Assembly: GCA_963728565.1 (NCBI GenBank)
Contig: CAVSLC010000013.1
Span: 224,001-288,000 of the forward strand
Direction of reading: 5' to 3'
Origin: an uncultured delta proteobacterium
GTDB lineage: Bacteria; Desulfobacterota; Binatia; UBA9968
Length of the DNA: 64,000 nt
A program made the position numbers and the translations under genes. The notes under the pieces were generated by a model that made no database searches, was not told the origin of the DNA, and worked only from the letters and a program-made list of their open reading frames with translations. Shown piece by piece: positions 30,044-58,560 of the stretch (position 1 is the first letter of the stretch; every line of letters begins with the position of its first letter).

Positions 30044-31028
30044 TTAGGCGACTATCGCCGAAGCCATGCGGACAACGCTTTTTCTCATTGCTTGGGTGCC
30101 CATAGGTAATAGAACCGGCAGATTCAGGCCCGCTTTGACAAATCCCTCCAACTGTTTGCCGCATTGTGCCGTAGTCCCGGCTACAGAGTGGGCAAAAACC
30201 ACCTCGTCGGCGATATATTTCTTCGCCCCATCCCAATCTCGCCTGCCCACCGCTGCGGCCAATCCCTCCTGGTCGACTTTGCCGCCGCCGAGCCGAATGT
30301 TCTCGGCGTGGTGAGTGTTGCGAAAGATATATGCGAGAAAAAGCTTGTTGGCGTCGATAGCCTCACGCGGATTCTCTGAAACTGCCGCAGTGATAAAACC
30401 CGCTACATCGACCTGGTTGACCGATTTGCCGGCTTTCGCCGCGCCGCATCGGATTTCGGTAATGCACCGCGTGATATATGCCGGAGAGCACCCGCCCGAA
30501 AGCAAGACGCCATCGCCGATTTCACCCGCCAGCTGAAGCATTCGAGGCCGCACCGCAGTGACATACATTGGAATTGCCGTCGACGGCACCAACCCCATCT
30601 TTGGACCGTTCAGCCGAAACATCTCGCCTTTATAATCAACCGAATCTCCCTTCAACAATCGACGAAGGATGTCGACGTATTCACGCATCGTTTTCAAAGG
30701 GCGGGGCGACTCGATGCCGGCTTCTTTCAGTGCGGCGGCATTTCCAGTTCCCGGGCTGGCAATCACCCTCCCTGGCGCAAATTCCTCCATCGTAGCCAGC
30801 GACATGGCGGAGATGATCGGCGCGCGCGAATATGGACTCACCGGCGCGGGCGCGACCTTGATCCGTTGAGTCGAGGCGAGCAGAGCCATCGAGGTCGTTA
30901 GCGAATCTCTGAAAGCAGAGATGGTCGGACATCCAAAGCGACTCCATGCTAGCCTCATCGGCGAGCCGGGCGAGTTCGATCATCTCCTGAATTGAATAGA
31001 ATCCGTCAAAGCATAAGCCCAACCGCAT
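30044..31028 (-). CDS. LLM-class (luciferase-like) flavin/F420-dependent oxidoreductase, frameshift near 30910
   Basis: MRLGLCF...SLWMSDH, STQRIKV, PRMLQLAGEIGDGV. Confidence 0.85.
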
Positions 31029-31105
31029 AAAGCCACCTTCCCTTTTTAGAGCCTTCATAAGTTCGCATGCCTCGTGTCATTGCTTCGGATTATCGGTTAG
31101 AACTG

Positions 31106-32216
31106 CTAAAACCCATTCTGCAAAATAACCGGCACGGTTTCCGCCGTGATATGCGCAAGCCCGATTTTTTCTAAAGTTAAACCTTCTCTTGAGTAATCGA
31201 TTCCATTAGCCACTGAAGCCAGCCTGATCAACGAGTTCATCACCGGAGTTACAATACCAAAGAGCCGGCCAATTTCGGCCATCGGCACCAAGCCGTATCC
31301 AACGTCTTCATGAAGGTAACGGTGATCAAGGCACGCCGGGGACTTGATCTTGAAGTTAGGCTCACTTTCATGAATCGCGCGATAAATGGAACCGCTGGCC
31401 CGTGCTTCAGCCGAAGTCAGCCCAGCTTGATAAAAGATATCGATGAAAGGTGTCGGCTTTAAGCCCGAGGCTCTTAACAATCTGCAAGCGCTCCTTATCG
31501 ACCTCTTCAATCCACGCCGCGATCGCCGGGGTTACTCCTTCGCGGTAATACAGAAAATTACCAGCGGTGTTTTCGATCCAACCCACGTTGCCGAGCATTC
31601 CCGCCGGATGCATGATGGCGTTGATGTTCGACAAACCCGTTTCAAGCACGTTCTGAGCAACTGTAACATTGGGGTAAATACTCTGAATTTCGCCGATCAA
31701 ATCGTCGGTGTTCGCTGCGGGAAAAGCGGCGCAGCGCAGATTCGTTGTGCGCCGATAGATTTCCACGTGGGCCGGTTTCACCATGCGGCAAATATAGGTC
31801 AGGGTCACAGTCTCGCAAAGTCTGACAGTGGCTTTATTACCGCACCGTCGCAGAATGTTGGCAAAATGCAGCGAGCCTCCAGTATGGCCGGGATTTAAGA
31901 GAATACGATTGGCCGTCTCTGTAAATGTGCTGCCATGCTTTGCGCCAGATATTCATGCGCAACCGCCGGCGCTGCAACAATAATCAGGTCCACGCCTTCG
32001 ATAACCGGGACAATATGCGGGCTGTGAAAATAGGGAGCGGCAAACTTTTCCTCGCCGGCCTCTGAAAGCGTGATACCACCCTGCTTGATAATCGGCAGCA
32101 GGGTCGCATCGGACCGGGAAAATAGCCGAACTTCGTAGCCGCGCAAGCGTCAAATCAGCCGCCGCTGCGCACCCGCCATTGCCTGCGCCCAGGACGGCGA
32201 TTTTACGAATTGCCAT
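31106..32216 (-). CDS. NAD(P)-dependent opine (octopine/nopaline) dehydrogenase family, three frameshifts (~32147, ~31900, ~31455)
   Basis: IAVLGAGNGG Rossmann motif, ETVTLTYICR, LSNINAIMHP, HRYLHEDVGYGLVP. Confidence 0.85.
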
Positions 32217-32304
32217 ACGTCACGAATGTGCTTGAGGCACGAATATTCTAAGAACTTAGACCAGGAAATGTCTAAAATTACTCGAGCTCGTTGGAATCTG
32301 CTAA

Positions 32305-33462
32305 TTAGGACTTGATTCGATAGTGTTCCAGTTTGTCTTCATCCAGTGCGATGCCCAGCCCCGGTTTAGGTGAAACAATGATATCGCCATTGTCGAAAGC
32401 GAACGGTTCGCTGATGATGTCGTCCTGGTAATAAATTCCTGCGATCCCTTTTTTCGCTTTCTCCTTGGGCGAAGAAACCGGCACCACACAGCCGTATGTA
32501 ACAATCCCGGTCGATGCGGCCAAGTGCAGATTGGCTGCGTTACCGACTCCCGTTTCTACTGATCCGTTTACATTGCAAGGCAATCCCGCGGCTTCAGCAA
32601 CGGCGGCAACCTTTTTAGCTTTGAACATTCCGCCCGGCTTGGTTGTGTAAATCGAAATGATATCGGCCGCCTTCTTATGAACAATCTCGAGCACGTCTTG
32701 CGCTGTCCAGGCGCTTTCATCGGCCATGATCGGTGTGTTGACGCGGCGCGCAACTTCGGCCATGTGATCGATGCCCTGCACCGGTTGCTCCATGTAGAAG
32801 AGATCGTATTCTTCCATCGCTTTGATTATTCTAACCGCCATCTTGACGGTGGGATAACCCTGATTGGCATCGACGCAGATATGCAAATCGGGACCAATGG
32901 CTTTTCTGATCTGCTTAACCAGCTCGACGTCCCGCTCATGATCGATGCCGCCTTTGAGCTTGATCGTCTTGACGCCTTCGGCTTTGGCCTGAATCGCTTC
33001 CTCTACGGCCTTGTCGATTTCCATCAGCCCCAGACTGTGCGCGATGCTGACCCGCTCGCGAAAACAACCACCGAGCAGCTGGTACGCAGGAACGTTCAGA
33101 GCTTTGCCGACGACATCGTAAAGCGCGGCATCGATAGCCGCTTTACAATAAGGATATCCTTTGACGGCTTTGTCCATGAGAGCATGGATCGCTTCGAAGC
33201 GGCGCGGATCTTGGTCTTTCAATGCCGGCGCGAGAATATCATTGATGATGTGAATCGTGGTCTGCGGCGTTTCCCCGAAATACCTGCCATAATCACCGCC
33301 CCAATCCTTCAGCACCGGCGCTTCACCGAGCCCGACCAAACCATCGTCGGTGTGCAATTTGATGATCACGTAGACACCAATGGGTGTCGTCAGACTGGCC
33401 CACTGGTGCACCCTGCGCGTCGGCAGGCGAATCGGGATCGTCTCTATAAACGTAATCTTCAT
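32305..33462 (-). CDS. Muconate cycloisomerase / mandelate racemase (enolase superfamily) enzyme
   Basis: GLGEA, KAAIDAALYD, TIKLK, VDANQGY, MEQP, IMADES, KPGLG. Confidence 0.9.
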   Translation of the reverse strand: MKITFIETIPIRLPTRRVHQWASLTTPIGVYVIIKLHTDDGLVGLGEAPVLKDWGGDYGRYFGETPQTTIHIINDILAPALKDQDPRRFEAIHALMDKAVKGYPYCKAAIDAALYDVVGKALNVPAYQLLGGCFRERVSIAHSLGLMEIDKAVEEAIQAKAEGVKTIKLKGGIDHERDVELVKQIRKAIGPDLHICVDANQGYPTVKMAVRIIKAMEEYDLFYMEQPVQGIDHMAEVARRVNTPIMADESAWTAQDVLEIVHKKAADIISIYTTKPGGMFKAKKVAAVAEAAGLPCNVNGSVETGVGNAANLHLAASTGIVTYGCVVPVSSPKEKAKKGIAGIYYQDDIISEPFAFDNGDIIVSPKPGLGIALDEDKLEHYRIKS

Positions 33463-33467
33463 GCTTC

Positions 33468-34580
33468 TCAACCGACTCTTAACAACGTGTCCGCCGGTGT
33501 GTAATCGGATAGCAACTCGCAACCTTTTTCGGAAACGCAAAACATATCCTTGTTTTGCATGCCGAAGCGTCCGGTAATATAAACCAACGGTTCGAAAGCT
33601 CCGACCATTCCGGCTTCGACAATCTCGTCGCCGTAACGGCCCATATAGGGCTCCTCGTGGAGATGCAGGCCGATGCCATGGGCGACGAAGCTGATCGGGT
33701 CGAAACCCAATTCGCTAAACTTCGCCAGGAAGCTTTGGTAAATATCCTTGCAGCGAGCGCCGGGCTTGATCAAATCCATCACCAGATATTTGCATTCAAT
33801 CAAGTTGGCCCAGATTTTCTGCTGCTCGGAAGTTGCCTGCCCGACCACAGCGGTGCGGCACACTCCGGCCAAATAGCCATTCTTCTGGCCGAAGATTTCC
33901 ATGCGAATCAGATCGCCTTTTTGCAGCTTGCGTTCAGTAGGTCCAACGTTGGGGAATTGGCTGCGTTCGCCGGACGCGATGATCATGAGCTTGTAGTTTT
34001 CTGCGCCGCCGGCAAACAGTTCGGTCAGTAGTCGGCCGGCTAGCTCTAGCTCGCTGATACCGGGGTTGGCCCGCACCAAGGTATCGCCAATCGCCTTGTC
34101 CGTCAGCTTACTGAGTGATCTTAGGAGCGAAAGCTCACCGGCTGTTTTTATCTGACGGGCCTTATTAAAGATCGCATCGCCCGCGCTCCAGCGAGCATTA
34201 GGAAGAAGTCTCTGCAGAGTAGCGAAATCTTTAGCCGGTAGATATTCCATTTCGATGGCGAGATTACCTCTAGCGAGATCAAGATCGGTTAACGCCTCCG
34301 CTAGTTTCTCCATCGGATCATCGCTGAACTCGCGATAAATACGCAAATCATCGATGTCCGCGTGCGCTTTGACCGTGCTCGCTTCCATGTCAATGGCGAC
34401 CATGGTTAGCTGCCCATCACAGGTGACTATACAGATCGCGTGACGCCAGCGCATCAACGATTGCGAGGGCACCACAAATCCGGAGACATAGGTTACGTTT
34501 TCGGGAGAGATTGCGATCAGCGCGTCGAGTCCTTGGTTGGCGATGCGCTGCTTAAGGCGAGCGACGATTTCTTGGTCCAT
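33468..34580 (-). CDS. M24 Xaa-Pro peptidase / creatinase-fold protein
   Basis: ARQIKT, CRT, AHGIGLHLHEEP, FEP; several metal ligands look substituted. Confidence 0.85.
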   Translation of the reverse strand: MDQEIVARLKQRIANQGLDALIAISPENVTYVSGFVVPSQSLMRWRHAICIVTCDGQLTMVAIDMEASTVKAHADIDDLRIYREFSDDPMEKLAEALTDLDLARGNLAIEMEYLPAKDFATLQRLLPNARWSAGDAIFNKARQIKTAGELSLLRSLSKLTDKAIGDTLVRANPGISELELAGRLLTELFAGGAENYKLMIIASGERSQFPNVGPTERKLQKGDLIRMEIFGQKNGYLAGVCRTAVVGQATSEQQKIWANLIECKYLVMDLIKPGARCKDIYQSFLAKFSELGFDPISFVAHGIGLHLHEEPYMGRYGDEIVEAGMVGAFEPLVYITGRFGMQNKDMFCVSEKGCELLSDYTPADTLLRVG

Positions 34581-34797: not shown

Positions 34798-35916
34798 TTA
34801 GCAAAAGCCGGCAAAATGATCGAAAGAAACTTTTCTGTCCGCCACCGCTGACCCAACGGCCTGGAGATCGGCAATATACTCGATGGAGTCAAGTTGCTGC
34901 ACGTTCTTGGGCTCGACATCCGGAAGTCCGAGACCATCCAGCCCGTGCCGCGTCAACTCGGCATTGTACCGCAGATAGGTAAAAAGCCTTGGTTGGACAG
35001 GGCCTCTCGTGCCGATCATATTGCCGACTTCGCGATCCAGCGGATCTCCGGCCAGGCATTTACCAAATACTCTGCATAGAAAATCCTGCTCGTTCAGCGC
35101 CGCTGCCATTAATGCCGAGGGTATCGAGCTGGCGTTGTAAAGCACGTTCATTTCATCCGGCCGCAGGTCGGCGTTTGCGTCCGGGCTCGTTCCGGTCCCA
35201 ACCGATACAACGAGCAGATTATCTTCGCCCACCGGCCAGTTCAGATTAAACGCTTCCACCGTAGCCATCAGGAAGGCCTGGAACGCCGGGTTGTTGTACA
35301 TCGTGATACCGCCATCGACAAAGATGAATTCCTTCTGTCCGACCCGCACCACTTCGGGCGGAAAATAGGTTGGCGCGGCGGTACTGGCCCGAACCAACTG
35401 CCACAGCGGCAAATTCAGGTTGCAATCCGCGCGCGCGCAATCGTTGTATTTGGCGCGTGGATTATTCGATATCGGCCAAGGTGAATCGGTCGAAGCGTTG
35501 CGCATGACCATCATCAGCAACCCGTCGATCTTTTCACTCCCCAGGGTGGTATCGGCGCCAAACTCCTGGCGCAGCCGGGCAGAGAGTTTTTGATCTTCGA
35601 ATTTATGCCGGTAGTAGCGATTCAGTAATGACGCTTTATCGAACATCTCCCGGCCGTTTTGCAGGTAAAAGTCACGAATACGATCGATGCTCATTCGCCA
35701 GGAGAGACAGGCGGCAATGATCGCGCCGGTGCTGGTGCCGGCAAAAAAATCGAAATAATCCGCCAGCACAAAATCGTTGCCCCGCCCTAAATTGTGTCGC
35801 AGCATATGTTCTATCTTCGCCAGCACTTCCACGGTCAAAATGCCGCGAATGCCGCCGCCGTCCAGCGCTAATATTTTCTTTGGTCCTATGGCTTTGATTT
35901 TATCCGCCAAACTCAT
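34798..35916 (-). CDS. Patatin-like phospholipase
   Basis: LALDGGGIRG oxyanion motif, GTSTG nucleophile, ASTAAPTYF, FVDGG catalytic Asp. Confidence 0.93.
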   Translation of the reverse strand: MSLADKIKAIGPKKILALDGGGIRGILTVEVLAKIEHMLRHNLGRGNDFVLADYFDFFAGTSTGAIIAACLSWRMSIDRIRDFYLQNGREMFDKASLLNRYYRHKFEDQKLSARLRQEFGADTTLGSEKIDGLLMMVMRNASTDSPWPISNNPRAKYNDCARADCNLNLPLWQLVRASTAAPTYFPPEVVRVGQKEFIFVDGGITMYNNPAFQAFLMATVEAFNLNWPVGEDNLLVVSVGTGTSPDANADLRPDEMNVLYNASSIPSALMAAALNEQDFLCRVFGKCLAGDPLDREVGNMIGTRGPVQPRLFTYLRYNAELTRHGLDGLGLPDVEPKNVQQLDSIEYIADLQAVGSAVADRKVSFDHFAGFC

Positions 35917-35929
35917 TGCCGATCTCCCA

Positions 35930-37896
35930 TCACCACAAAGTCGTTGTGTCGATCACATAAACCCTGCCTGAATACTTCTGCACGGTCTCAAACATATGCT
36001 GGGTGCCGCCGGGGCCATCGCCGCCGCTGCGGTTCCAAAGACAAACAAAGCGCACCTTCTCTGGCCCCCATGCCAGCGAAGTGTAAAGCTGCCAAAGGTT
36101 TAGCCGCGCGAACGGGTTTGCTGCCGCGGGTAGCGGTCCTAGCACTTCGGGCATCACCAACGTTGTGGTATTTGGATGAGCTTTAACTTTGAAGTAGCGT
36201 TCCGTCCAGTTGCCCGGAGCGAAGGAGACCGACTTCCGCAAAAACGTCGGCTCGTCCAAGGCTAATCGTAATTCGAGTTTGACTCCGCGCTGAAGGGCAG
36301 CTTCGGCAAACAACAGGTCGCCGCCGCATGCGCCGCCGCAGAGAGCCAGGTCCGCCGCCCCCGCGTCCAACTTTTCCAGGGTAGCCGCTATCGCCGCCGC
36401 GGCGATTTTCTCTTTATCGGCAGGAAATCGCGGCTCGGGCCGGTCCGGAGCATCGATCATATGACCGCTGAATAGCAAAACCTGTCGTGGCGCCCAGGTC
36501 TTATCTGGCGGATTGAGCCGGCTTAACGCGCGATCGAGAACCGCCAGTGCAGCTTCAACTTCCTCCGGACGAAAACCCAAAAGTCCCAGCAGCTCGAGCT
36601 GCTGGCGTGATGAATTGAGTTTGAACCAATCCTTATCAGCTACCGCGACGGCGTTCTTGTATGCCGCATCGACCGCTGGCTTCGTCCCCACCAAAACTTC
36701 CAATTCGGCTAAGCTGATGCGCGCCCAGTAATCTTTGGGATTTCTCTCCAGCGCGCCACGGATCGCCCAGCGCACGCCGCCTTCCATTTCCGTGCGCAGC
36801 ACATCGGCTTTCAGCTCATCGGCCGACAGGTGAGCCAACAAATGCAGCAAGGTCACGGCATTGATTCCTGAGTAGTAGTGCGCCGGATCTTTGCGGAATC
36901 CGGTGGAGTATGCGTTGATCGCTTCGCATAGGGTTGCGCTTTCGCTCTCAGCTTCCCGGCGCATATCGACGACAGAGCTTCCGTCGCTGCTTCCAGCAAT
37001 CCACCCACGCGTCTTTTTCCACGCGCCCGCGCATCGCCCAACTCTCGGCATCTTGAGGGAATTCATCGATCAAATCTTCGATGCACTCTTTGGCATCGTC
37101 ATGCTTTTTTAGCCGGCCGAGTAATAGGCACTTCTGCCGGCGACTCTCTAAATCTCTAGGTCGGATCGCCAGCGCCTCTTCATACTGTGCCAGAGCCAAC
37201 TTGAATTGGCCCACTGAAAGCAGCGCCCGGCCGGCCTTCTGGAGTGCCTCAAGGTGAAAAACGCGAGTAGGCGCCTCGCCGGCTAGAACAAGAATATCGC
37301 CAGGACGATTGCCTCTCCTGGCTATGTCGATCCGGTCCGCCCATCCTTCATATTGTTCCCAAAACTCTTTGGCTTCTTCGACCCGGAGAGACTTCCAATC
37401 AGGCTCGTCCAAATAGCGTAGCAGATGATAGACTGGACTCACCTTGCGTCCATACCAGGCATTGATCGTATGAATAGCGACCTCGGCTAAATTTTTCTTG
37501 TCATCCTCGAGGTACTGCGGATCGGGAATCGCTGCGGCCGGGGTGTTTTTGGCGATTCGGTAACGAACCGAACGTTCAGTAAGAACATCGAAGGGCGTTT
37601 GATCGCGCCGGCAGGTAATCTGAATCACGCCCCGCTTCCTGAGCGCATGGCGCACGCCAAGTTCGTACCAGACGTTGGGATTGTCAATGGACAAGTCGGC
37701 GACCACCAGATCCGCGAGCAGCAGTTCCTGGAACATATCCGTGCGGATATTGCCGGCCCGCATCTCTTCGTCGGCGCGAAATACTTCAAAGCCCGCCGCC
37801 TTCCAAAGCCGGTTTGATCAACTCACGAAATACCGCATTGAAGTCAATATCTTCCTTGATGCCAAAGGGCATCGCGACAAACGCATGGTGCGCCAT
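35930..37896 (-). CDS. Multidomain protein: nucleoside-deoxyribosyltransferase-like N-terminus, TPR/DUF4071 (ASK1/MAP3K TRAF-binding-like) region, SLOG-like C-terminus; two frameshifts (~37800, ~36980)
   Basis: AFVAMPFG, RADEE, ADLSIDNPNVWYELGVRHA; TPR helices and YYSGINAVTL; LFSGHMID..RFP, GGACGGDLLFAE, WNRSGGDGPGGT. Confidence 0.8.
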
Positions 37897-38332
37897 GTCA
37901 TTTCACCTCATCCGTGTCGGCGATCGTAGTCCAATGTCGGCCGACGCAGTGCTATCATCTTCTCCGCGCCAATCGGTCTCCCCGCCACATTAAAGCAGGC
38001 ATGTTCCGCTGGAAATTCTTCAGTTAAGATAGATACTCTCAACTACGCCGCAAGTATAGCTTTTTTGCCTGAGAAACGCCCGTGAATTCCACCAATATGA
38101 GTCACGTTGAGCTAAGCTCCAATCGCAAGAATGGGAATAAGCGGAAGGAGCCATGATTCTGTGGTCCTTCACACTGAATCGATATGCTTGTGGGCAACGG
38201 GAACATAGATCGGGTTTATCACCTGCCTCGAGAGCTATCCCGTCAAGACTGGCCGCCGAGACAGGATTTTTGCGCTTGGCTTTCTAGCAAAAAATTGCTA
38301 ACTAATTTGGATTCTCAACTTGGAGGGTTAAG

Positions 38333-38702: not shown

Positions 38703-39167
38703 CTATCGATTTTCCCCGGCCCGAGATTGTTGAATCGCCTCGACAATCGCGTCGGCTTCAAGACCCAGTTCCAGGGTCTCGATCAGGTCACTGTAACGAT
38801 CAGGATCTATGATCGCCTTCACTTCCGGCTCGAAGACGTGATACACGCCTAAACCCAATTCGACGCCACCGAGCGGCCCGGCATAGGTCGGATCGCCGCG
38901 GGTCATGGTTTCGAACTGCACGCGCGCCGCATCGACGTTGGGCGCGCCGAGTAGCACGACGAGATCATCCGCACCGTACTCTTCTGCAAGCTGTTTGACT
39001 CGACCTTGAACCTCAAGGTCCACCGCGCCGGCGGCAGTTCAAACAAAGCACTGAGTGGTCGCGTAGACTACCTCGGCACCCAGATTCTCGATAGCCTGTT
39101 CGATGGTATGGGCCGGCACGCCATCGCGTTCGCCGAGAATTGCGATTTTCTTGCCTCGAAGTTCCAT
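38703..39167 (-). CDS. grdA: Glycine/sarcosine/betaine reductase selenoprotein A (154 aa, Sec at UGA 39039-39041)
   Basis: MELRGKKIAILGERDGVP...TQCFV-U-TAAGAVDLEVQGRV...GDPTYAGPL: GrdA consensus with CxxU; frame continues across the TGA. Confidence 0.95.
39002..39020 (-). promoter_or_regulatory. SECIS-like hairpin of grdA
   Basis: GACCUUGA-GGU-UCAAGGUC perfect 8-bp stem starting 18 nt after the UGA, G-rich apical loop. Confidence 0.75.
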
Positions 39168-39209: not shown

Positions 39210-39414
39210 TTATCCCTGCCGTCCAACATAATCAACATGTCATTTCATTTGTTATCACTGTCGCTCACCTCGCCAACATGCCGATTTCATCTTTATGGCT
39301 GCCGTTCCAATAGCACCGACATGCCGTTTTGGCGGGCTGTCACTGTCGCTCTCATCTCGCCAACATGCCCCATTTCATTTTTTATGGCTGCCGTTCCAAT
39401 AGCACCGACATGCC
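39210..39414. repeat. Degenerate tandem repeat including an exact duplicate of the grdC 3' end
   Basis: 34-bp exact repeat at 39292-39325 and 39381-39414 (period 89); five ~40-45 bp units each starting G(G/A)CATGT on the minus strand. Confidence 0.85.
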
Positions 39415-40827
39415 ATCGCTGAGCTGGGTCATCTGCCCCAAAAATAAACTGGCTCGGGCAAAAAGAAAACAGCGCTTGAATTGTCCCTGGGTTAGTTCTT
39501 GGACGGCATGCGGCACATAAGCCAGCGCCGAGGCGATATGGCCCTGGGTTGGCGCATAGCCGGGCAATCCCTTTTCTTTCATGAATGCCGCAAGATCGTT
39601 TTTTGCCAGCTTGCCCGCCTTGACCAGGACGGCCCCGAGCATCCGGTAATTTCGCTCCGCAACGTCGCCGCCGTTCGCCGGCAAGGTGATCTCCGGATTG
39701 TGCAATTCGGTGACAAATTTATCGATCGCCGGCACGCCCAGCTCTAGCCGGTTCAGCGGGTCGACAACCAGTGATTTCAGCTGCTGATCCAATGACGCGC
39801 CGGCCGATACCGGATGACGGCCGACGCCGGCCAGATTGATAATCGGGCTTTTGCCGTCATCCCGGCCAACCCAGACCGCAACTGCCGCCTGCATGTCTTC
39901 CAACACCGGAATGTTTTTTTCAAGATGGTAGAGAAACTTCATGCCGAGCTTGGGCAGAGACGATCCACCGACAACAATGATATTTTCCGCGACACCGCTT
40001 TGCACGAGCGCGGCGGCGGTGACCATCGCCGGAATCGGCGCGGCGCAAAAATCTTTAACATCGAAACCGGAAGCCATCTCACAACCGGAAAACTCGGCGA
40101 TCGCTTTGGCTAAATTGCCGCCGCCGCGCTGATAACGGTCGCCGACGGCCTCTTCCGAACAGCCCAATACAAAATCGACCTCTTGCTTCTTCAGGCCCGG
40201 GTTTCCGGCAAAGATTTCCTCAAGCGACAAAGCCGCCGAGACCTTGCCGCAGAGATTCTCCAACAACACCGTCGCAGATAGCGACTCATCTTCGTGATGC
40301 CCGTTGGCGATCCAGCCCACCGGTTCGAGCTCACTGCCAATAAACAGCTGCAGGCCGTCACCTTGAGCGATGATCGACTTCAGCTTGTTTGAGTCCATAA
40401 GATTCGGAGCAGTCGTTGCAAGCGATCTGCAAACGGTCGATTGCTGCAGAGGCGCGGCAATCTCATCCCAGAAACGGTCGAGCAAGGCAACATGTTTGAA
40501 CGGATCCGCCAGCGCGAGCAGAGCGAGAAAGAGTTTTTCGTCGACGATGCTGCCGAAGGTTTTTCGCTCCTCGGTGAGTATCGCATGCTCTCCGAACCAC
40601 GGTCGGCTGACTAACCATAGTTTCTCAGGCGCTTGTTGACCGATGAAAACCTCATTGGGCAAGTAGCCCTGCGCTTGCTGAAAGGACCTAAGACTTCGGT
40701 TCAAGTCCGCGAGACGCGCCGGATTGGCGGCAATTTCCCGTTGCGGTTTTGACCCATACCGTGTCAGACCCGGGGTATGGATCAGGACGCTGCAGGCTGC
40801 TTTTATCACAGGTGAAAAATTCGACAT
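39382..40827 (-). CDS. grdC: Glycine reductase complex component C beta subunit (FabH/thiolase-like fold)
   Basis: HTPGLTRYGSKP, LLENLCGK, CSEEAVGDRYQRGGGNLAKAIAE, FCAAP, KLGMK, ELHNPEIT, PGYAPTQGHI. Confidence 0.92.
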   Translation of the reverse strand: MSNFSPVIKAACSVLIHTPGLTRYGSKPQREIAANPARLADLNRSLRSFQQAQGYLPNEVFIGQQAPEKLWLVSRPWFGEHAILTEERKTFGSIVDEKLFLALLALADPFKHVALLDRFWDEIAAPLQQSTVCRSLATTAPNLMDSNKLKSIIAQGDGLQLFIGSELEPVGWIANGHHEDESLSATVLLENLCGKVSAALSLEEIFAGNPGLKKQEVDFVLGCSEEAVGDRYQRGGGNLAKAIAEFSGCEMASGFDVKDFCAAPIPAMVTAAALVQSGVAENIIVVGGSSLPKLGMKFLYHLEKNIPVLEDMQAAVAVWVGRDDGKSPIINLAGVGRHPVSAGASLDQQLKSLVVDPLNRLELGVPAIDKFVTELHNPEITLPANGGDVAERNYRMLGAVLVKAGKLAKNDLAAFMKEKGLPGYAPTQGHIASALAYVPHAVQELTQGQFKRCFLFARASLFLGQMTQLSDGMSVLLERQP

Positions 40828-40954
40828 AGCTGCTCTTCAGGATGTATAAAGTATGAGGCTGCCGATCAAGAGGCGAGCCCGCAGAAGAACGTTAAGAGAC
40901 GAAGATCGCTCTCACGATTGTTCCGGGCTAACAGCCTGGTGAAAAATGGGTCTT

Positions 40955-41084
40955 GCAAGCTGCTCAAAAAGACCTCAGAGGTAAGGCGCGCGAAGTCCGA
41001 TGAGCTGAGGCGTACGTTTCAGTACGTCGAAGCGAGTCGCGCGAGCGCAACGACACCTATGAGTCATTTTCAGCAGCTTGCTAG
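40955..41084. repeat. ~130-bp structured repeat (MITE-like), copy 1
   Basis: Terminal inverted repeats GCAAGCTGCTCAAAAAGACCTCA / TGAGTCATTTTCAGCAGCTTGC; internal CGTAC..GTACG hairpin; ends in CTAG. Confidence 0.85.
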
Positions 41085-42385
41085 TAGGCATTGCAGATCC
41101 AGCATTCCTTACCCCAATTATCGACACCGCCAATCACCATATCGCGCGCGTCAAAGGTGAGTTTTCCTTCGGCCTGCGCCACCGGCGCGCCAGGGTAGCT
41201 GAGAATCTGCACCCGGTCGTACGGGCCGACCAGACGTTGGGCTTCGGGCAGCTCCAACCAGCGGTCGCGGCTCCCAGTGCTTACCACGGCGTCGGCTTCT
41301 GGAACATAGAACAGCAGCGGCGAATCAACTCCGTCCTTGCCGCCGTACTCATAGGTTACCAGCACCGTGGCGATCCCGCGCAGTTCACACGCGCGCACCG
41401 TCAGCATCACGTCCACGAAGGCGTTACCGGAACCTAGCCAGGCCACGATCGCCCCCTGCGCACCAAGAGTCGCCGCCAGTTGCGCGGCGTTTTGGGCGAT
41501 CACTTCCTTGCCATGAAAAGTCTCGTAACGAATGCGTTGCAAAATCATACCGCTGAAATTCAAGCGCCGGCCGTGATCGCGGTAAAGCGCCAGCACCAGA
41601 GGATGATTCTGCCAATCCCAGGTAATCGGAAAATAACCGATGCCGCGGGTGGCATTGACTGCCATGGCACAGTCGAGCAACTCGTTGGGATGAACCACGG
41701 TCGAGAGCGATTCTCGTATCGGCAGACCGTAATAGCTCACACCTGAATGAACATGATGATCGTCGGTCAAACAGCCTTGAACCAAGACCACGTTCGGCAA
41801 ATCCGCATGCCTTTGGCTGAGATCGAAAACCTCTACGTTCTCGGCCTCAATGCCGATGGTCGTCTCGGCAACACGGCGGGCAACTTGGAACTCAGCGGTT
41901 TGAATTGCCGTGTGCGCATCGAGTTCCGAAAGCCCATCGCGCAGCTTCATGATCAACACCAGATGCGAAAGGCCGCCAAATTTTGACGCCGCCGCGCCCG
42001 CTCCCCATGTATCGAGGAGGGCGCTTCGCTGCACGCCCAGTCCGGCTCTAACGGTTCCCTCGTACGCCGCCGTCGCGATCACAGCCATGCCGGATAAGCG
42101 ATGGGTGCGACCGGCGCCGACCGCTTCCACCGGTCCGAGTATCCCGGGAAACACCTGACCGTTGCCGCTAACTTTCACCCGGGGCTCAACGATGTCGCGA
42201 ATACCGGTGATGCGCACCTTGTCGCCAGGACAAACCACAGCCAAGGATGCTTCGGCGATTCGCCCGTCACGCAGGATTATTTCCTCCAGCGCAGGTTGAT
42301 CGATCGCGAGCGTTCCGGCGCGGTATTCAAATGTCCGGCCCAGACGGATCTCTTTGACCGGGTAATCAGCCAGTTCGAGTCGCAT
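41081..42385 (-). CDS. Glycine/sarcosine/betaine reductase component B GrdE/GrdI-like subunit, paralogue 1
   Basis: MRLEL, PGDKVRI..IRDIVEPRVKV, FPG, HPNELLD, QNHP, GSGN, EYGGKDG; collinear with GrdE. Confidence 0.9.
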   Translation of the reverse strand: MRLELADYPVKEIRLGRTFEYRAGTLAIDQPALEEIILRDGRIAEASLAVVCPGDKVRITGIRDIVEPRVKVSGNGQVFPGILGPVEAVGAGRTHRLSGMAVIATAAYEGTVRAGLGVQRSALLDTWGAGAAASKFGGLSHLVLIMKLRDGLSELDAHTAIQTAEFQVARRVAETTIGIEAENVEVFDLSQRHADLPNVVLVQGCLTDDHHVHSGVSYYGLPIRESLSTVVHPNELLDCAMAVNATRGIGYFPITWDWQNHPLVLALYRDHGRRLNFSGMILQRIRYETFHGKEVIAQNAAQLAATLGAQGAIVAWLGSGNAFVDVMLTVRACELRGIATVLVTYEYGGKDGVDSPLLFYVPEADAVVSTGSRDRWLELPEAQRLVGPYDRVQILSYPGAPVAQAEGKLTFDARDMVIGGVDNWGKECWICNAY

Positions 42386-42391
42386 GCTTGC

Positions 42392-43732
42392 TTACCCGCT
42401 CACCGCCATATTCGGGGTAAATAGCGTCGGTCCCGTGACTTCGGATTCCAGCGCTTTCAACGCGGTCTGAACGATCTCGCGCCGCAGCCGCGCATCGAGA
42501 TCTTGCGGCAGGCTCGGATCGCCGCAAGGATGAGGTATGCTGACGCCTTTAACGATCCGGTTGGCCCGTACCTGCTCCGCCACCGGATACATCGCGCTTA
42601 CCAAGGCTACCGGAAGTCCCGCCTTCTCGAGTTCTTTGCTCATCACAGCGCCGCTGCGACTACAAGTCCCTCACGTGGCGACAAAGAGCACGCCCTCGAC
42701 ATTGTCCTTCTTCAGATCGGCGGCAATTTCCTGGCCGACGCGGCGCATCACCGCGGGGGAGCCCTGATTGCCTGGAATAACGTAATACGCCGGATACAGT
42801 TTGCCGGCGCCGATCACCCCTTCCGATTCTAACGACCGAAGCGCATCCAGCGGCACGCCATAGTGCGGATTCTTGTTCATGTAGGCGACATTATAGCCGC
42901 CGTGAACAGCTTCCCATTTTCCCGGTTCAAGCTCTTTGAGCTCGGCAATGTTGTATTTACGCCAGTGGGTGTTGCGGTAGGTTTTGAACCGATCCGGATT
43001 GCCCCAGGGAACGACGCCGCTGGTGGTGATGACGGCAATGTTGCGGGCTTTTAAATTATCGAGAGGCGGAGCCGGCGCGATATCGTCCCAGGCCTCCATC
43101 GGCACTTCAGTAGTGAAGGGCTCATGATTGATCTTTTTCAGCAACATATCGATGGCGCGATCGGCGCCGCTCCGATCAGTTTTTTCCAAACGCCGGATAC
43201 CGCGGCTCAAGTAACCTTCCTGCAACGCCGGCCCGATGGTCTCGCCTCGAGCCAGGCGAGAGACAAATTTCGCCACCGCCTTGAGCGCATCGGTCATGCC
43301 GGCGGCGGTCTCTGTTGTCGGTAAACAGAAAACCCGAGGATCGGCCAGGTCGCGATAAGTGCCGATGGCTGGATTTTCTTCGTGCATTGCGGTGACGCAG
43401 GGAATTTCCAATGTCGTGGCAACGGCGTGACAAATCTCGATGCAGCTCATGCCGTAACGTCCGGAATTAAACGCCGGACCGGCGACTAGCGCTTGCGCTC
43501 CCTGAGAGCGAACCGCTTCGAGGATTGCCTTGAGGGCTTCCTCACTATGATCGTGAAAGTAGTTGTCCCCATAATAGATCGTGCATGCGACCTTGGTGTC
43601 AGCGCCGAGCTGTGACTGCAGCCCGCGCGCCGCGCCGGCGGCCTCTTCGATCATGCCGACAGACATGCCCGCCTTCTCTTCGCCTCCAAACCCGGCAAAG
43701 AACTGATTAACGACATGGACGATTGTGGTCAT
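42392..43732 (-). CDS. grdB: Glycine/betaine reductase-type selenoprotein B (446 aa, Sec at UGA 42671-42673)
   Basis: VHVVNQFFAGFGGEEKA, AGPAFNSGRYG, TTSGVVPWGNPD, HGGY, then VAT-U-GTCSRSGAVMSKELEKAG...IPHPCGDP; ORFs 42671-43732 and 42392-42646 are in the same frame. Confidence 0.95.
42642..42660 (-). promoter_or_regulatory. SECIS-like hairpin of grdB
   Basis: GUCGCAGC-GGC-GCUGUGAU 8-bp stem (two G-U pairs) starting 10 nt after the UGA. Confidence 0.7.
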
Positions 43733-43857
43733 CAGGAAATCCTCCTTTGCAACGACCCGTTAAATAGAAGCACCCTATCATCTTTCGCGTATTCATCGAT
43801 AGCCGCGGCCGCGGCCGAAAGGCTGGCTCCTTCGCTCCAGTTACGGGATTATCTCTT

Positions 43858-43987
43858 GCAAGATGCTCAAAAAGACCTCAAAGGCAAGGCGCGCGAAGTT
43901 CGATGAGCTGAGGCGTACGCTTCAGTACGTTGAAGCGAGTCGTGCGAGCGCAACGACGCGTATGAGTCTTTTTCAGCATCTTGCTAG
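43858..43987. repeat. ~130-bp structured repeat (MITE-like), copy 2
   Basis: GCAAGATGCTCAAAAAGACCTCA / TGAGTCTTTTTCAGCATCTTGC; near-identical to copy 1; ends in CTAG. Confidence 0.85.
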
Positions 43988-45291
43988 TAATCCCTGCATA
44001 CCCATCCCTGCTCGCCCCAAATATCGGCTCCACCGATGATCACATCCCTTCCCTCCAGCGACAGAGCACCGCGGGCTGGACTCGCAGGCACGCCCGGATA
44101 GGATAATACTTTGATCTCGTCGTACGGACCGAGTACTTTGTCCATCGCCGGGAGCTCGACGCCGCGATCCAAGCTGCCGGTCGTGACCACGCCATCGGCT
44201 TCCGGCAAATAGAAAAGCAGCGGGCTATCGCGGCCTTCCTTGCCGCCATGTTCATAGGTCACCAACACCGTTTTGATTCCATTACGCTCGCACGCCTGCA
44301 CCGTCAGCATGACATCGACGAAAGCATTGCCGCCGCCGATCCAGGTCAGCAGCGCTCCGTCGGCGCGAAACATTTTCGCCAGCCGCGCAGCATTCTGCGC
44401 GCCGACTTCTTTCCCGTGCGCAGTCTCGAAACGGATGCGCTGCAAAATCACGCCGGCAAAGTTGAGATCTCTTCCATGGGCTTCGTACAGGCGCAGCACC
44501 AGCGGATGATTCTGCCAGTCCCACGTAGTTGGATAGTATCCGCGGCCTGAACGAGTGGTGTCCACGGTGATCGCGCCGTCAAAGAGCTCATTGGGATGGA
44601 GGAAGGTCGCCATCGATTGGCGCAGCGACAGGCCATAGTAGCCAACTCCCGAGTGAACATGCTGCGGATCGGTAATACAGCCTTGGACCAGCATCACTCT
44701 GGGCAAGCCGGGAGTTTCCGCGCTCAGATCGAAGCGGCGAACCGATTCAGGCGAGAGTCCAACCGTTACTTGCGCCAGCCGTCGGGCGACTTTGTATTCG
44801 GCCAATTGAATCGCGGTATGCGCATCCAATTCTCCCAGGCCAGAGGCGAGGCGAAAGCTCACCACCAGATGCGCGTGCGCGCTGAAGCGCGAGATCTCTG
44901 CTGCGGCTCCCGTCATATCTAAAATGGCGCTGCGCTGCACGGTGGTGCCGGCGCGGATGGTGCCTTCGTACGCTGCCGCCGCAATCACCGTCATTCCTGA
45001 AAGCCGGTGCGTCGTCCCCTCTCCCACATCGGCCACCGGCCCGAGAACGCCAGGAAAGACCTGGCCGTTTCCCGAAACCTTATAGCGCGGCTCGACGATA
45101 TCGCGAATGCCGGTGATGCGGGTTTTCTCCCCGGGCATGGCCGCGGTGAGCGAAACGTTAGTAATGCGCGGATCCTGGAGCACCAGATCCACCAGTTCGG
45201 CTTCGTCCATATCCAATGTGCCGTTCCGGTAGGCGAAACGCCCTCCCAGGCGTAAATGCTTGACCGGAAATTCGGCGACATCGAGTTTCAT
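43984..45291 (-). CDS. GrdE/GrdI-like component B subunit, paralogue 2
   Basis: IRDIVEPRYKV, HPNELFDGAI, WDWQNHP, GGGNAFVDV. Confidence 0.9.
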   Translation of the reverse strand: MKLDVAEFPVKHLRLGGRFAYRNGTLDMDEAELVDLVLQDPRITNVSLTAAMPGEKTRITGIRDIVEPRYKVSGNGQVFPGVLGPVADVGEGTTHRLSGMTVIAAAAYEGTIRAGTTVQRSAILDMTGAAAEISRFSAHAHLVVSFRLASGLGELDAHTAIQLAEYKVARRLAQVTVGLSPESVRRFDLSAETPGLPRVMLVQGCITDPQHVHSGVGYYGLSLRQSMATFLHPNELFDGAITVDTTRSGRGYYPTTWDWQNHPLVLRLYEAHGRDLNFAGVILQRIRFETAHGKEVGAQNAARLAKMFRADGALLTWIGGGNAFVDVMLTVQACERNGIKTVLVTYEHGGKEGRDSPLLFYLPEADGVVTTGSLDRGVELPAMDKVLGPYDEIKVLSYPGVPASPARGALSLEGRDVIIGGADIWGEQGWVCRDY

Positions 45292-45322
45292 AATCTAGCG
45301 TGAATAGTTCACCAACGAAAGA

Positions 45323-45501
45323 CGATCAAGGGGCGAACCCTCCGGAACGAAGGCGATGGGCCTTTGCCTTGAGGCGGCCTGCGAACTGAAGTTCGGGAGC
45401 AAGCGCCTGGGAAATAATTTGACTTCACCGCCAAACACCATAAAATTATTTGAAGCTGTTCAGCTCCGCGCCTTCGCTCCTCCGAATTCTCCCCTTGATC
45501 G
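45323..45501. repeat. Long intergenic foldback
   Basis: CGATCAAGGGG / CCCCTTGATCG, CGAAGGCG / CGCCTTCG, AAATAATTT / AAATTATTT inverted pairs. Confidence 0.6.
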
Positions 45502-45529
45502 ACACCCTTGTCGTGAGCGTACCAGCCCC

Positions 45530-46603
45530 CTATCGCGCACCGACTAGCTTGGCAAATTCTTCGACGTAGGCTTTGAGATTAGGCCCGAGCTTGGGAGTTA
45601 CCACGTAGTCAGGCTGGAGTTGAAATTCCTGGAATTTGCTGCGCACTCCCTTCATCGCAACCCCTTTCCCGAGTTTGCCTGCCAACACTGTTTGCCCCTC
45701 TTCCGATAGTACCCAATCGGCGAAAAGCAATGCCGCATGCGGGTGCGGCGAGTTCCTGGCGAGAAACAGGCCCTCGGGCTTTACGATCTTCGGCGCCAAT
45801 ACTTTGAATCCCAACGGCGCTCCCTTGTCGCGGATGGCCGCGGAGGTTTCGCCATTGATAGCGATGCCGATGGGATACTCGCCTGAACTCACCACCTGAG
45901 TGGTCAAAGCGCCGCCGCGCCTGAAGCTGAGATCCTGCTTGCGCAGCTTCGTCAGATAGTCCACCGATTTCTCCCGTCCCCATGCCTGCTCCATCGCTGC
46001 CAGAATGTAGCCGGCTTCAGGGTCGAACAGCAGTTTGCCTTTCCACGACGGATCGAGAAGCGCGTCATAAGTTTGCGGCACCGACTCGGCCTTGACCAAA
46101 GTTGTGTTGTAAACCAACGCGGTGGTCAAATAATACATGCTATGCCACGAGCCGCTCGGATCGTAGGTGCCATCATAGAATCGCTCCCGAGCGGCCATGG
46201 CGTAAGAATGGACTAAATTGTCATTGATAAGCTGGTAGCCGTAGCTCGAATCGACCTGGATCGCGTCCACGGCATGGCTGCCGGCGCGCGCCTCGGTGAG
46301 CGAGCGGTTAAGGATTCCCTCGCGTGGCGCGTAGTAGTGTTTTAGATTCAAGAATGGATAGCGCGCATTGAAAGCCTTGCCGAGTTCGCTAAATTCATTG
46401 ACCAAAATAGTTCCGTAATAAACCAGCTCGCCTTCCTTTTGAGCTCCCTTGACGAGAAAATTTTGTTTGTCCTGAGGATTTAGCATGCTGACTTTCGCCG
46501 TCACCTCTGACATAGTCGCTGCGCCGCTAGTGTCTGCCATAAGAATGAACAGTAATGATTGGCATAGCGTTAAAACTCCGAGGCCCTTTATCATTTTACG
46601 CAC
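45530..46603 (-). CDS. ABC substrate-binding protein, Fe3+/thiamine-like family
   Basis: GAQKEGELVYY, YNTTLV, LLDPSWKGK, SPHPHAALLFADW. Confidence 0.87.
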   Translation of the reverse strand: MRKMIKGLGVLTLCQSLLFILMADTSGAATMSEVTAKVSMLNPQDKQNFLVKGAQKEGELVYYGTILVNEFSELGKAFNARYPFLNLKHYYAPREGILNRSLTEARAGSHAVDAIQVDSSYGYQLINDNLVHSYAMAARERFYDGTYDPSGSWHSMYYLTTALVYNTTLVKAESVPQTYDALLDPSWKGKLLFDPEAGYILAAMEQAWGREKSVDYLTKLRKQDLSFRRGGALTTQVVSSGEYPIGIAINGETSAAIRDKGAPLGFKVLAPKIVKPEGLFLARNSPHPHAALLFADWVLSEEGQTVLAGKLGKGVAMKGVRSKFQEFQLQPDYVVTPKLGPNLKAYVEEFAKLVGAR

Positions 46604-46745
46604 CGTCGTACCTGCCTTTCACTCGCCTAATATCATCGAACCAGTATCATTCAAATTGATTCTTAGATGCTTCAACCAAATCCGCAGGAATGGATACTGT
46701 TTGCTCCCCGCTTGATGCTTGCGTCGGTTGAACTGCAGTAAGCGA

Positions 46746-48050
46746 TCAGTAAGCATCGCATCGCCAGCTTTGACTTCCCCAATTATCGACGCCGCCGATC
46801 AACATGTCGCGCGCATCCAGGGTTATTTCTCCCATCGCTGGCACAACCGGCGCTCCGGGGTAAGTCAAAATCGAAAATTCCTTATACGGTCCGACCACAC
46901 GCTCGGGCGCGGGAAGTTCGAGCCAACGATCTCTACTGCCACTGCTGACTACCGCATCGGCCTGCGGCAGGTAATAAAGCAACGGTGAATCGACACCGTC
47001 CTTGCCACCGAACTCGTAGGTGATCAGCACGGTTTTGATGCCGCGCTGTTCGCAAGCACCAATGGTCAGCATCAATTCAACGAATGCATTGCCGGAACCA
47101 ATCCACGCAACCAGCGCGCCGGCGGCCCCGAGAGTCGCTGCCAGCTGAGACGCGCTATGCGCCGCCACCTCTTTCCCCAGGAAAGTGTCGAACTGAATGC
47201 GTTCGAGGATCACGCCGAGAAAATTAATCTGCTTGCCGTGCTGGCGGCACAATCCGAGCGCCAGCGGATGATTTTGCCAGTCCCAAGTAATCGGGAAATG
47301 GCCGACCGCTCGAGTGGCGGTCACGGTAATCGCGCCGTCGAGCAGTTCGTTGGGGTGCACAAACGTCGCCAGTGAATCGCGAATCGGCAAGCCGTAGTAG
47401 CTCACGCCGGAGTGAACGTTATGGCTATCCGTGAGACAACCTTGAATCAACACGACCGCGGGCAAGTCCGGCCGCGTAGCGCTTAAATCGAAGGCTTCGG
47501 TGCTTTCGGGGTTGTGGCTGACGGTGAGTTCGGCAAGTCGCCGCGCTACCTTCAGCTCCGCGCCTTGAATCGCCTGATGCGCGTCGAGATCGGACAGCGC
47601 TTCTTTAAGGCGCATCACCAGCACCAGCCCGAGCAGCGAACTAAACCGCGAAGCATCCGCGCCCGGTCCCCACATATCCAGGAGCGCGCTTCGCTGCACC
47701 GCCAGACCGGCGCGGACCGTCCCCTCGTAGGCAGCGCTGGCTATCACCGCCATTCCGGAGAGACGATGGGTTGTGCCCTCACCGACATGGTCTACCGGAC
47801 TTAACGTACCCGGAAACACCTGAGTTTGGCAGCCCACTTTCACCCGTGGCTCGACGATATCGCGGATCCCTGTCACCCGGACTTTCTCGCCCGGATGAAC
47901 CACCGCCAGGGATGCATCTTCGATGCGTCGGTCCTCCAACATTAGATCCGTCAAGGCTCGCTGATCCACTTCCACAATCCCGCGGTCATAATGAAACCTT
48001 TTTCCTAGGTGAATCTGCTTTACCGGAAATTCGGCGAGATCTAGCCGCAT
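46746..48050 (-). CDS. GrdE/GrdI-like component B subunit, paralogue 3
   Basis: MRLDLAEFPVK, IRDIVEPRVKV, HPNELLDGAI, WDWQNHP, GSGNAFVEL. Confidence 0.9.
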   Translation of the reverse strand: MRLDLAEFPVKQIHLGKRFHYDRGIVEVDQRALTDLMLEDRRIEDASLAVVHPGEKVRVTGIRDIVEPRVKVGCQTQVFPGTLSPVDHVGEGTTHRLSGMAVIASAAYEGTVRAGLAVQRSALLDMWGPGADASRFSSLLGLVLVMRLKEALSDLDAHQAIQGAELKVARRLAELTVSHNPESTEAFDLSATRPDLPAVVLIQGCLTDSHNVHSGVSYYGLPIRDSLATFVHPNELLDGAITVTATRAVGHFPITWDWQNHPLALGLCRQHGKQINFLGVILERIQFDTFLGKEVAAHSASQLAATLGAAGALVAWIGSGNAFVELMLTIGACEQRGIKTVLITYEFGGKDGVDSPLLYYLPQADAVVSSGSRDRWLELPAPERVVGPYKEFSILTYPGAPVVPAMGEITLDARDMLIGGVDNWGSQSWRCDAY

Positions 48051-48054
48051 CGGT

Positions 48055-49041
48055 TTACCGCGAACGTTCAAAGGCACCTTCTTTCTCTAGCTTGCGGACG
48101 AGCCGATCGTCGACCAAGTCTTCGGCTTTGAGCTGGCGAATTTTCTCGTTGCTGGTTCCGAGCAGGCGGATGGCATTGCGGATGCCGTCGGCGTTTGGAT
48201 AAATGCGCCGCTCATAAAGCGTCCGCATGAGCTCATAGCCTTCTTCCGCATCCTCGAATCGCGCCAAACGCAGTCCTTTATGGAGACTGGTCATGACGCT
48301 GGTCTTGTTTTCCGGCTTCTCGATGTATGCCGTAGCCTGGGTCATGGCTCGAAGCACCTTTTCAACCGTTTCCGGTGACGATTTGAGAAAGCTCCGCCGC
48401 ACGAAGACGCCGGTGCTTTGATAGGGAATCTTCAAGCTGGCAAGATCGGCGAGCACATTGAATCCCTGACGCTTCATGAGCGCTCCGAAGGTATAGCCCA
48501 AGTAAGTACCCTCGATCAGGTTGGTGGCCAGCGCCTGGGCTAGAACCGCTTCATCGCCGACGATTCTGAAGTTGACTCCATCACGTTTGGGCTCGATGCC
48601 CCAGTGATCCAACACCAGCATGGTAATCATCCAGATGCCGCCGCCGATGCTTTGGACGCCGATGTTCCGGCCTTTCAACTGTGCGGGAGTTTTGATCTGC
48701 GGATGAACGACGAACGTACCGGTAAGCCGATTGACCAATCCGGCAACGAATACACCGTCCAAGCCGCCGGCCACCGCGCCAAGCGTAACGCCCGTGCCGG
48801 AACCGAAATAAAATTGCGACTCACCTGCGGCTAACGCCGAAAGCGCAACGTTCCCCGCGCGGACATACACAAGGCGCGCGTCCAGATCCTGTTTGCGGAA
48901 AAACCCCTGGTCCTGAGCAACGAGAAGAGCGCCCGCGGTCCGTTCATTGAAACTGGCGTATGAAATCACCGTCTGCGTAGCCGCTTGGACGTATGAAGCT
49001 ATAAGTAGCAGCGCAAGGGTGAAACTTATTCGAAGACGCAT
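48055..49041 (-). CDS. ABC substrate-binding protein, NMT1/SsuA-like
   Basis: Signal peptide; VAQDQGFFRK, LKGRNIGV; only 4 nt from grdE paralogue 3. Confidence 0.87.
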   Translation of the reverse strand: MRLRISFTLALLLIASYVQAATQTVISYASFNERTAGALLVAQDQGFFRKQDLDARLVYVRAGNVALSALAAGESQFYFGSGTGVTLGAVAGGLDGVFVAGLVNRLTGTFVVHPQIKTPAQLKGRNIGVQSIGGGIWMITMLVLDHWGIEPKRDGVNFRIVGDEAVLAQALATNLIEGTYLGYTFGALMKRQGFNVLADLASLKIPYQSTGVFVRRSFLKSSPETVEKVLRAMTQATAYIEKPENKTSVMTSLHKGLRLARFEDAEEGYELMRTLYERRIYPNADGIRNAIRLLGTSNEKIRQLKAEDLVDDRLVRKLEKEGAFERSR

Positions 49042-49072
49042 GATCAACCTCCAGGTTTCTTATACTACTAGT

Positions 49073-49276: not shown

Positions 49277-49391
49277 CGAGCAAGAAGGCTCATATGCGAG
49301 TCGCGCGATGGTCGATGAGCGCAGGCGTACATAGTCAGTACGTCGAAGCGAATCGGGCGAGCGCAACGAAGTAGATGAGCCTTATCGCTCG
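49277..49391. repeat. Diverged copy 3 of the ~130-bp structured repeat
   Basis: Shares CGATGAGC..AGGCGTAC..CAGTACGTCGAAGCGA.TCG..CGAGCGCAACGA core; own terminal stem CGAGC..AAGGCTCAT / ATGAGCCTT..GCTCG. Confidence 0.75.
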
Positions 49392-58458: not shown

Positions 58459-58560
58459 AGGCGAACCCTCCTCCGTTACTGCAATGCTCCCTCAATATCT
58501 AAATGATCGGCAGATGTCTATTTGTTTCTACCAGGGCCATTTGGTAACTTTATCCAAACG

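Follow-up and report, generated by a model that had tools for sequence, protein, structure and literature searches.

A Binatia gene cluster encoding one GrdB-like selenoprotein and three GrdE/GrdI-like subunits with glycine at the pyruvoyl site

In the glycine reductase family, displacement by a selenolate and transfer of the carboxymethyl group to GrdA are established chemistry. The closest described systems are the betaine reductase GrdH/GrdI, the fluoroacetate reductase FarE/FarB and protein B of glycine and sarcosine reductase (GrdE/GrdB and GrdG/GrdF). Here we analyzed a 64,000-nucleotide stretch of contig CAVSLC010000013.1 from an uncultured delta proteobacterium of the Binatia (the window), in which a cluster of related genes encodes one GrdB-like selenoprotein and three GrdE/GrdI-like subunits, here called E1, E2 and E3. 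The genome that contains the window is 80.55% complete and is designated G000; other G- and L-numbers denote compared genomes and loci. The genes of the cluster and their neighboring binding-protein genes are as follows.

48055..49047, minus strand: NMT1/SsuA-like solute-binding protein, cassette partner of E1 (PF09084, 63.7 bits)
46746..48050, minus strand: E1, GrdE/GrdI-like subunit of 434 aa (PF09338, 305 bits), loop TATRAVGHFPITW, Gly250 at the pyruvoyl site
45530..46603, minus strand: SBP_bac solute-binding protein of the Fe3+/anion type, cassette partner of E2 (PF13416)
43984..45291, minus strand: E2, GrdE/GrdI-like subunit of 435 aa (PF09338, 308 bits), loop DTTRSGRGYYPTTW, Gly251 at the pyruvoyl site
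42392..43732, minus strand: the single GrdB-like selenoprotein (PF07355, 385 bits), UGA codon for selenocysteine (Sec) 354 at 42673-42671
41081..42385, minus strand: E3, GrdE/GrdI-like subunit of 434 aa, between grdB and grdC (PF09338, 301 bits), loop NATRGIGYFPITW, Gly250 at the site
39382..40827, minus strand: GrdC with a FabH-like fold (NF040746, 510 bits, cut-off 450), Cys261 in KDFCAAP
38703..39167, minus strand: GrdA selenoprotein with a CFVU motif (PF04723, 119 bits), UGA codon for Sec43 at 39041-39039

The betaine reductase cluster of Enterococcus gilvus (NZ_CP030933, L166) has in common with this locus a PF09338 subunit that, by sequence, lacks the pyruvoyl-site Cys, a Sec-containing protein B, GrdA and GrdC. 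However, GrdI has Ser at the site, keeps the motif EEGYGNPD and occurs as one E per B, whereas the window has Gly, has lost the motif and encodes three E subunits of a separate clade. The E. gilvus B protein reads IQSASATK and UxxCxxC where the window protein reads FKTYRNT and UxxCxxS, and its cluster also holds a BCCT transporter, trxA/trxB and grdD. FarE of Cloacibacillus porcorum MFA1 lacks both cysteines, as the window subunits do; Leong et al. (PMC10838667) describe it as not a proprotein and liken it to the betaine GrdI; FarB lacks the CxxC pair, and FarE/FarB is proposed to work without a Schiff base. E1-E3 reach 104-120 bits against NF053623 (cut-off 675), which sets them apart from FarE by profile score rather than by direct FarE alignment. 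FarE/FarB has one E per B, and the window cluster contains no MFS antiporter or radical-SAM gene. Glycine and sarcosine reductase share with the window the Pfam families, the position of the Sec codon, GrdA and GrdC; E1-E3 differ in lacking the pyruvoyl Cys, are 28-32% identical to GrdG and score 207-227 bits against NF040793 (cut-off 780), and neither GrdD nor Pta turned up in the order. Profile scores, motifs and alignment, and tree position led us to reject an assignment of E1-E3 to GrdI or FarE.

We aligned E1-E3 with P. acidaminophilum GrdG (L162), the E. gilvus subunit encoded beside grdH, which was taken as GrdI, and an unannotated GrdE-like protein of A. noterae. The pyruvoyl-site Cys of the references aligned with G250, G251 and G250 in E1, E2 and E3, and the upstream Cys with Thr. 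In this alignment neither Ser nor Thr occupied the cleavage site of any of the three, nor did a canonical Cys. The reference motif EEG(F/Y)GNPD aligned with W(I/L)G(S/G)GNAF. An earlier note, made from the DNA alone, had reported the missing cysteine, and both this and the segments and motif it quoted were exact. In C. difficile GrdE the pyruvoyl group is derived from a Cys at residue 242 (PMC9908766), and the C421S variant of the related protein PrdA was unprocessed (PMC11229817). Because the GrdE pyruvoyl is Cys-derived and even a Cys-to-Ser change stops PrdA processing, Gly at the site should not cleave. The prediction that E1-E3 are uncleaved and carry no pyruvoyl group, which the note had also made, is well supported at the level of sequence.

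The earlier note treated the loss as surprising; it had already been described for GrdI and FarE, and most of the representatives examined show it. These were the 117 full-length proteins among the 150 best 50%-identity representatives (33 outside 370-460 aa were dropped), a sample biased to the query. Gly occupied the site in 25, Ser in 21, Cys in 18 and Ala in 15, and only one representative kept both cysteines. Within the clade of E1-E3 (n=101), the residue was Gly in 66, Ala in 25, Ser in 7 and Cys in 3. A small subtype of this clade has the canonical-site Cys (AVCHHP or GVCHHP; L053:4890-6254, L109:4626-5930 and L131:9959-11305), and a subtype in group f2 has Ser (VSYHP); both represent natural controls for cleavage. 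The window E genes fell in a Candidatus Binatia clade (support 99), and GrdE, GrdG and GrdI in a separate one (support 100); the tree was made by a quick method with midpoint rooting and does not tell whether Cys was gained or lost. Nearest homologs carry the labels Candidatus Binatia or uncultured delta proteobacterium. Cys loss alone is thus known and common, and the finding lies in the architecture.

The three E open reading frames (ORFs) are intact and 61-68% identical in pairwise comparisons, and E1-E3 (300-308 bits) and GrdB (385 bits) pass the Pfam gathering scores of PF09338 and PF07355. A profile search of G000 matched PF09338 three times and PF07355 once, always inside this cluster. 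Ratios of nonsynonymous to synonymous substitution rates (dN/dS) of 0.05-0.28 in nine of nine E comparisons across three related loci indicate purifying selection. The whole gene order was found again in L074, L075 and L077, so that an assembly artefact is ruled out; together with the dN/dS values this also excludes pseudogenes and assembly duplication.

An excess of E over B recurs in the order, which we surveyed in 87 genomes (G000 and 86 with completeness of at least 90%). Clade B was present in 56 genomes and clade E in 57. Exactly one clade B was found in 51, 43 of which had at least two clade E (24/26 in group f2 and, G000 included, 19/25 in group f1). Five genomes had several B. Among them, G248 (L144-L154; 99% complete, 9% contamination) contained 17 GrdB-like and 20 GrdE-like matches and a single GrdC, and its B-E pairs are interleaved with binding proteins. 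More distant E types adjoin their own B. In the single-contig genome G029 the sole clade B lies about 1.9 Mb from the sole clade E.

We next compared loop 243-256 across the 101 clade sequences that remained after removal of the duplicates L018 and L004, using a tree computed after masking of the loop. Of the sequences, 90 fell into seven subtypes; the other 11 were left out of the comparison within and between subtypes. Loop identity was 0.79-1.00 within subtypes and 0.47 between them, against 0.60 at the remaining positions, and the top four of 422 ranked 14-residue windows all cover the loop. In the 26 E2-type orthologs the loop was identical (1.00), with a mean identity elsewhere of 76%. 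Subtype sets vary between genomes. The note had called this loop conspicuously variable among the three paralogs, which does not hold: three-way identity is 43% in the loop and 53% over the whole length, and at least the same variability is seen in 37% of 14-residue windows. The variability is conspicuous only over the wider clade. An Arg in the loop, which it had also pointed out, is present in all three paralogs, while the clade as a whole has either Arg or Lys (89 R, 12 K). W257, W259 and P254 are invariant (101/101) and positions 252/253 are mostly aromatic.

Two of the three window E subtypes are accompanied by their own solute-binding protein. At E1-type loci the binding-protein gene, 76-98% identical or the window gene itself, lies directly upstream in 8/13 cases; two of the 13 are at contig ends. 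At E2-type loci an ortholog lies directly upstream in 23/26 (64-97% identity; one is truncated and one is the window gene), and the next best match to the E2 partner within the genome is 36% identical. The E1 partner scored below the SsuA and taurine NCBIfam cut-offs, and the E2 partner had only weak matches in the PDB. Other recurring neighbors are peptidase S51, luciferase-like monooxygenase, UbiD, TauD and cupin, which do not settle the substrate; no BCCT-type transporter was among the annotated recurring neighbor families. In L155, L156 and L157, genes for a PepE-like peptidase S51 and acetate kinase come after an E subtype.

The note had further proposed modeling each paralog with GrdB. 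This was done for E1, the copy farthest from grdB, with GrdB residues 1-353; the complex scored 0.93 against 0.00 for the best control, a pass that cannot discriminate between the paralogs. The score mark was reached by 116/157 solved complexes and 2/215 mismatched pairs, counts that are only approximate with our own alignments. Runs shared at least 93% of contacts, with a partner pLDDT (predicted local distance difference test) of at least 89. The modeled interface includes E residue 320, in the W(I/L)G(S/G)GNAF motif, and B residues 323-327. Interface positions were more conserved among E1-E3 than positions elsewhere (64% vs 51%), a difference reached by 3.9% of random sets. The AlphaFold2 model of E2 had a pLDDT of 94. 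Sequence searches found no solved relative of E or B. Foldseek gave no hit at E 0.001, and the best VIA-align hit (Z 8.3, 108 residues, root-mean-square deviation 3.2) is a generic alpha/beta fold that is silent on function.

The frames of grdB and grdA are both open when TGA is read as Sec, and Sec354 of GrdB lies within ATUGTCSRS (UxxCxxS). TGA stands at this position in all 66 distinct B genes listed. Folding energies of candidate selenocysteine insertion sequence hairpins were not significant (z -1.6 after the GrdB UGA, and -0.7). G000 encodes SelD, SelA, tRNA-Sec and thioredoxin reductase (TrxB, outside the cluster), as well as heme-copper oxidase subunit I. The SelD gene (G000:C28:38569-39495) itself carries an in-frame TGA and is therefore probably a selenoprotein gene, judging by its sequence. 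In four soil metatranscriptome runs, contigs 85-99% alike spanned 27, 29, 28 and 17 of 30 bins, a weak hint that relatives of the cluster occur in soil RNA libraries.

The last step of the pathway must differ from that of known systems, since a profile search (E 1e-10) found GrdD in none of the 87 genomes of the order, single-contig genomes included, and GrdC in 67 (64 above the cut-off). The earlier note did not mention this lack of GrdD. The GrdD model gives a true GrdD 552 bits. A weak hit in G000 proved to be PlsX, and a tblastn search of that genome with E. gilvus GrdD had no hit. GrdD reportedly carries the acetyl-accepting cysteine (attributed to Kohlstock et al. 2001). In E. gilvus GrdD, Cys358 lies close to the C-terminus, and PlsX of G000 has no Cys after residue 223. 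The FabH-type Cys of GrdC is kept in the window protein, as it is in canonical GrdC, that of E. gilvus included. The Pta family was found in none of the 87 genomes, and PduL-type Pta in none of the five single-contig genomes tested. Acetate kinase was found in 57/87, and in G240, G236 and G233 it lies two genes behind an E, which favors acetyl phosphate. Conversely, 6/9 single-contig f2 genomes with clade B had no acetate kinase match, which favors acetyl-CoA (coenzyme A) or acetate. G000 itself gave no match, a weak negative given 80.55% completeness and matches, two of them partial, in 5/6 other genomes of the genus. We did not adopt acetyl-CoA as the uniform product, in view of acetate kinase in 57/87 genomes and beside an E in three. 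Release as acetyl phosphate seems the best guess, at somewhat under even odds; acetyl-CoA is possible but doubtful, and free acetate more doubtful still.

We suggest, with a probability of roughly 0.55, that the cluster encodes a Sec-dependent enzyme of the glycine reductase type that cleaves X-CH2-COO- with no Schiff base to a pyruvoyl group of the E subunit, using one GrdB and three E. The single GrdB would pair with any of the three uncleaved E subunits; loop 243-256 of each, going by its conservation pattern, would tune the X that is accepted; and the binding proteins next to E1 and E2 may capture the matching solutes. Assuming that family chemistry applies here, the Sec354 selenolate would displace X, and the resulting carboxymethyl-selenoether would pass to Sec43 of GrdA. 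GrdC may then open it and keep the acetyl unit bound in the absence of GrdD, the FabH-type Cys261 being the most plausible site, and thioredoxin would re-reduce GrdA. The E excess over B, the subtype-fixed loop, the binding-protein cassettes and the E1-GrdB model thus lend indirect, sequence-based support to the idea, raised in the earlier note, of E subunits as interchangeable specificity modules on a shared GrdB; the B-E pairs that predominate in G248 do not fit it.

For X, the acidic EE...D motif of the glycine, sarcosine and betaine subunits is neutral in E1-E3. This loss is a modest clue only, because most other representatives also lack the motif (it is present in 3/117). E has gained R/K247, and B carries FKTYRNT where the references read IESSSASK or IQSASATK. 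Together, the lost acidic motif and the gained basic residues would make a neutral or anionic X likelier than an onium group. N-carboxymethyl amino acids or other anionic tertiary or secondary amines are our tentative first choice, S-, O- or sulfonate-linked groups a more tentative second; an onium (betaine-, sulfonium- or arsonium-like) is unlikely, some other group more so, and a halide is improbable. The genes for opine-dehydrogenase-like, M24 and enolase-family proteins that lie 4-9 kb downstream were considered as substrate clues and not adopted for their poor recurrence: the enolase-family gene recurs in only seven clustered loci, and neither of the other two appeared in the 70 top-ranking clusters listed. 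A bolder extension, which we regard as unlikely, is a combinatorial selenoenzyme of oxidase-bearing soil and aquatic Binatia whose E modules, with their own binding proteins, would remove the carboxymethyl group of more than one anionic X-CH2-COO- compound (N-carboxymethyl amino acids, thioethers, sulfoacetate or aryloxyacetates), the GrdC Cys alone handing the C2 unit to CoA to give acetyl-CoA without GrdD, Pta or ATP cost.

Several observations weigh against the proposed one-B, multi-E enzyme. In eight of the 51 genomes with a single B the E is single as well, and related genomes do not count as independent cases: one genus supplies 26 of the 51. G248 mostly has B-E pairs with differing active-site loops, and its B loops vary too, so that B contributes to specificity as well. 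Residues fixed by subtype are also present elsewhere in the protein (positions 393, 297 and 287), and the loop is not named in the modeled interface. That model was cut at the Sec and lacks the 93 C-terminal residues of GrdB, and close cousins of a true partner are also expected to pass (10/12 colicin cousins did). The binding-protein families are large in G000 (104 and 36 matches), and the ligands of both proteins could not be assigned. The product evidence is split, and within the clade the site carries Cys in three sequences and Ser in seven.

The alternative that survives best, although we consider it unlikely, is that E1-E3 are co-assembled or condition-specific scaffolds of one complex with one substrate, where mainly GrdB sets specificity and E stabilizes it. 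The B motifs FK(T/I)(Y/F)RN and PGNQG are indeed near-constant across the clade whichever E adjoins, the B loops of G248 change along with E, and a stabilizing role of GrdE-derived chains is mentioned in PMC3091704. Loop residues that are fixed within subtypes and different between them, the binding protein that each of two subtypes keeps, and the varying subtype sets weigh against this alternative.

Less probable again is an analog of betaine reductase in which an onium substrate (glycine betaine, dimethylsulfonioacetate or arsenobetaine) is held by cation-pi contacts in an aromatic pocket; the note had proposed such a pocket for a quaternary or tertiary amine or a sulfonium. The aromatic residues are conserved as described above, the Arg could bind the substrate carboxylate, and GrdI likewise lacks the site Cys (by alignment and according to PMC10838667). 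However, the clade is distant from GrdI on the tree, B reaches 294 bits against the GrdH cut-off of 775 (N-terminal part), the GrdI motif EEGYGNPD is lost, and B reads FKTYRNT in place of IQSASATK. The basic residues gained on both E and B and the missing BCCT-type neighbor point the same way, and an onium pocket is not our leading guess. A Schiff base through another carbonyl, on GrdB or a non-canonical Ser/Thr, with ordinary amino-acid substrates such as glycine from peptides, is improbable: a further carbonyl on GrdB has been suggested to bind glycine (PMC9908766) and peptidase S51 genes follow one related subtype, but that carbonyl went undetected in the same study, no Ser/Thr is conserved at the site, PrdA C421S was unprocessed and B lacks the glycine-type IESSSASK.

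Other features of the window lie outside the grd genes. An intergenic element of about 130 bases stands after E2 (43854-43985), after E3 (40951-41082) and before the cluster (49289-49383). It has at least 40 matches in the genome at 78-92% identity, resembles a repetitive extragenic palindrome or a miniature inverted-repeat transposable element, gave no match in an Rfam search and is missing from these places in some relatives. The grdC-grdA gap contains an exact direct repeat of 34 bases with a spacing of 89 bases (39241-39414), one copy of which overlaps the end of grdC. At 34798-37900, a patatin-like phospholipase gene lies behind one for a TPR-S / MAP3K_TRAF_bd protein, the latter frameshifted in the assembly; the region looks like a sensor-effector or defense-type island. 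The run at 30044-34580 comprises genes for an M24 peptidase and an enolase-superfamily enzyme, an opine-dehydrogenase-like gene with a frameshift and a luciferase-like gene that is split. Frameshifts in several neighbor genes suggest assembly errors; the grd genes, by contrast, are intact. Two adjoining ORFs at 58522-61253, annotated by eye, presumably encode a MoxR-type AAA ATPase and a VWA-domain protein (RavA/ViaA-like).

We found no published account of this clade, of more than one E per B or of a system without GrdD, in a search beyond whose reach lay most subscription papers, including the original Andreesen-group work. The main text of the Binatota survey (PMC8262859) does not contain betaine, sarcosine, selen- or glycine, and its extended data may list these genes. 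The multi-E, binding-protein-linked, GrdD-less arrangement thus appears undescribed and points to an undescribed branch of the glycine reductase family. If this is true, the glycine reductase scaffold would not be confined to Stickland fermentation in anaerobes, and a widespread uncultured lineage encoding a heme-copper oxidase would have a modular carboxymethyl-cleaving system. With three loop variants on one B, specificity is directly testable, and the cluster offers a natural test of the role of the E subunit and its pyruvoyl group and of the division of work between GrdC and GrdD in protein C.

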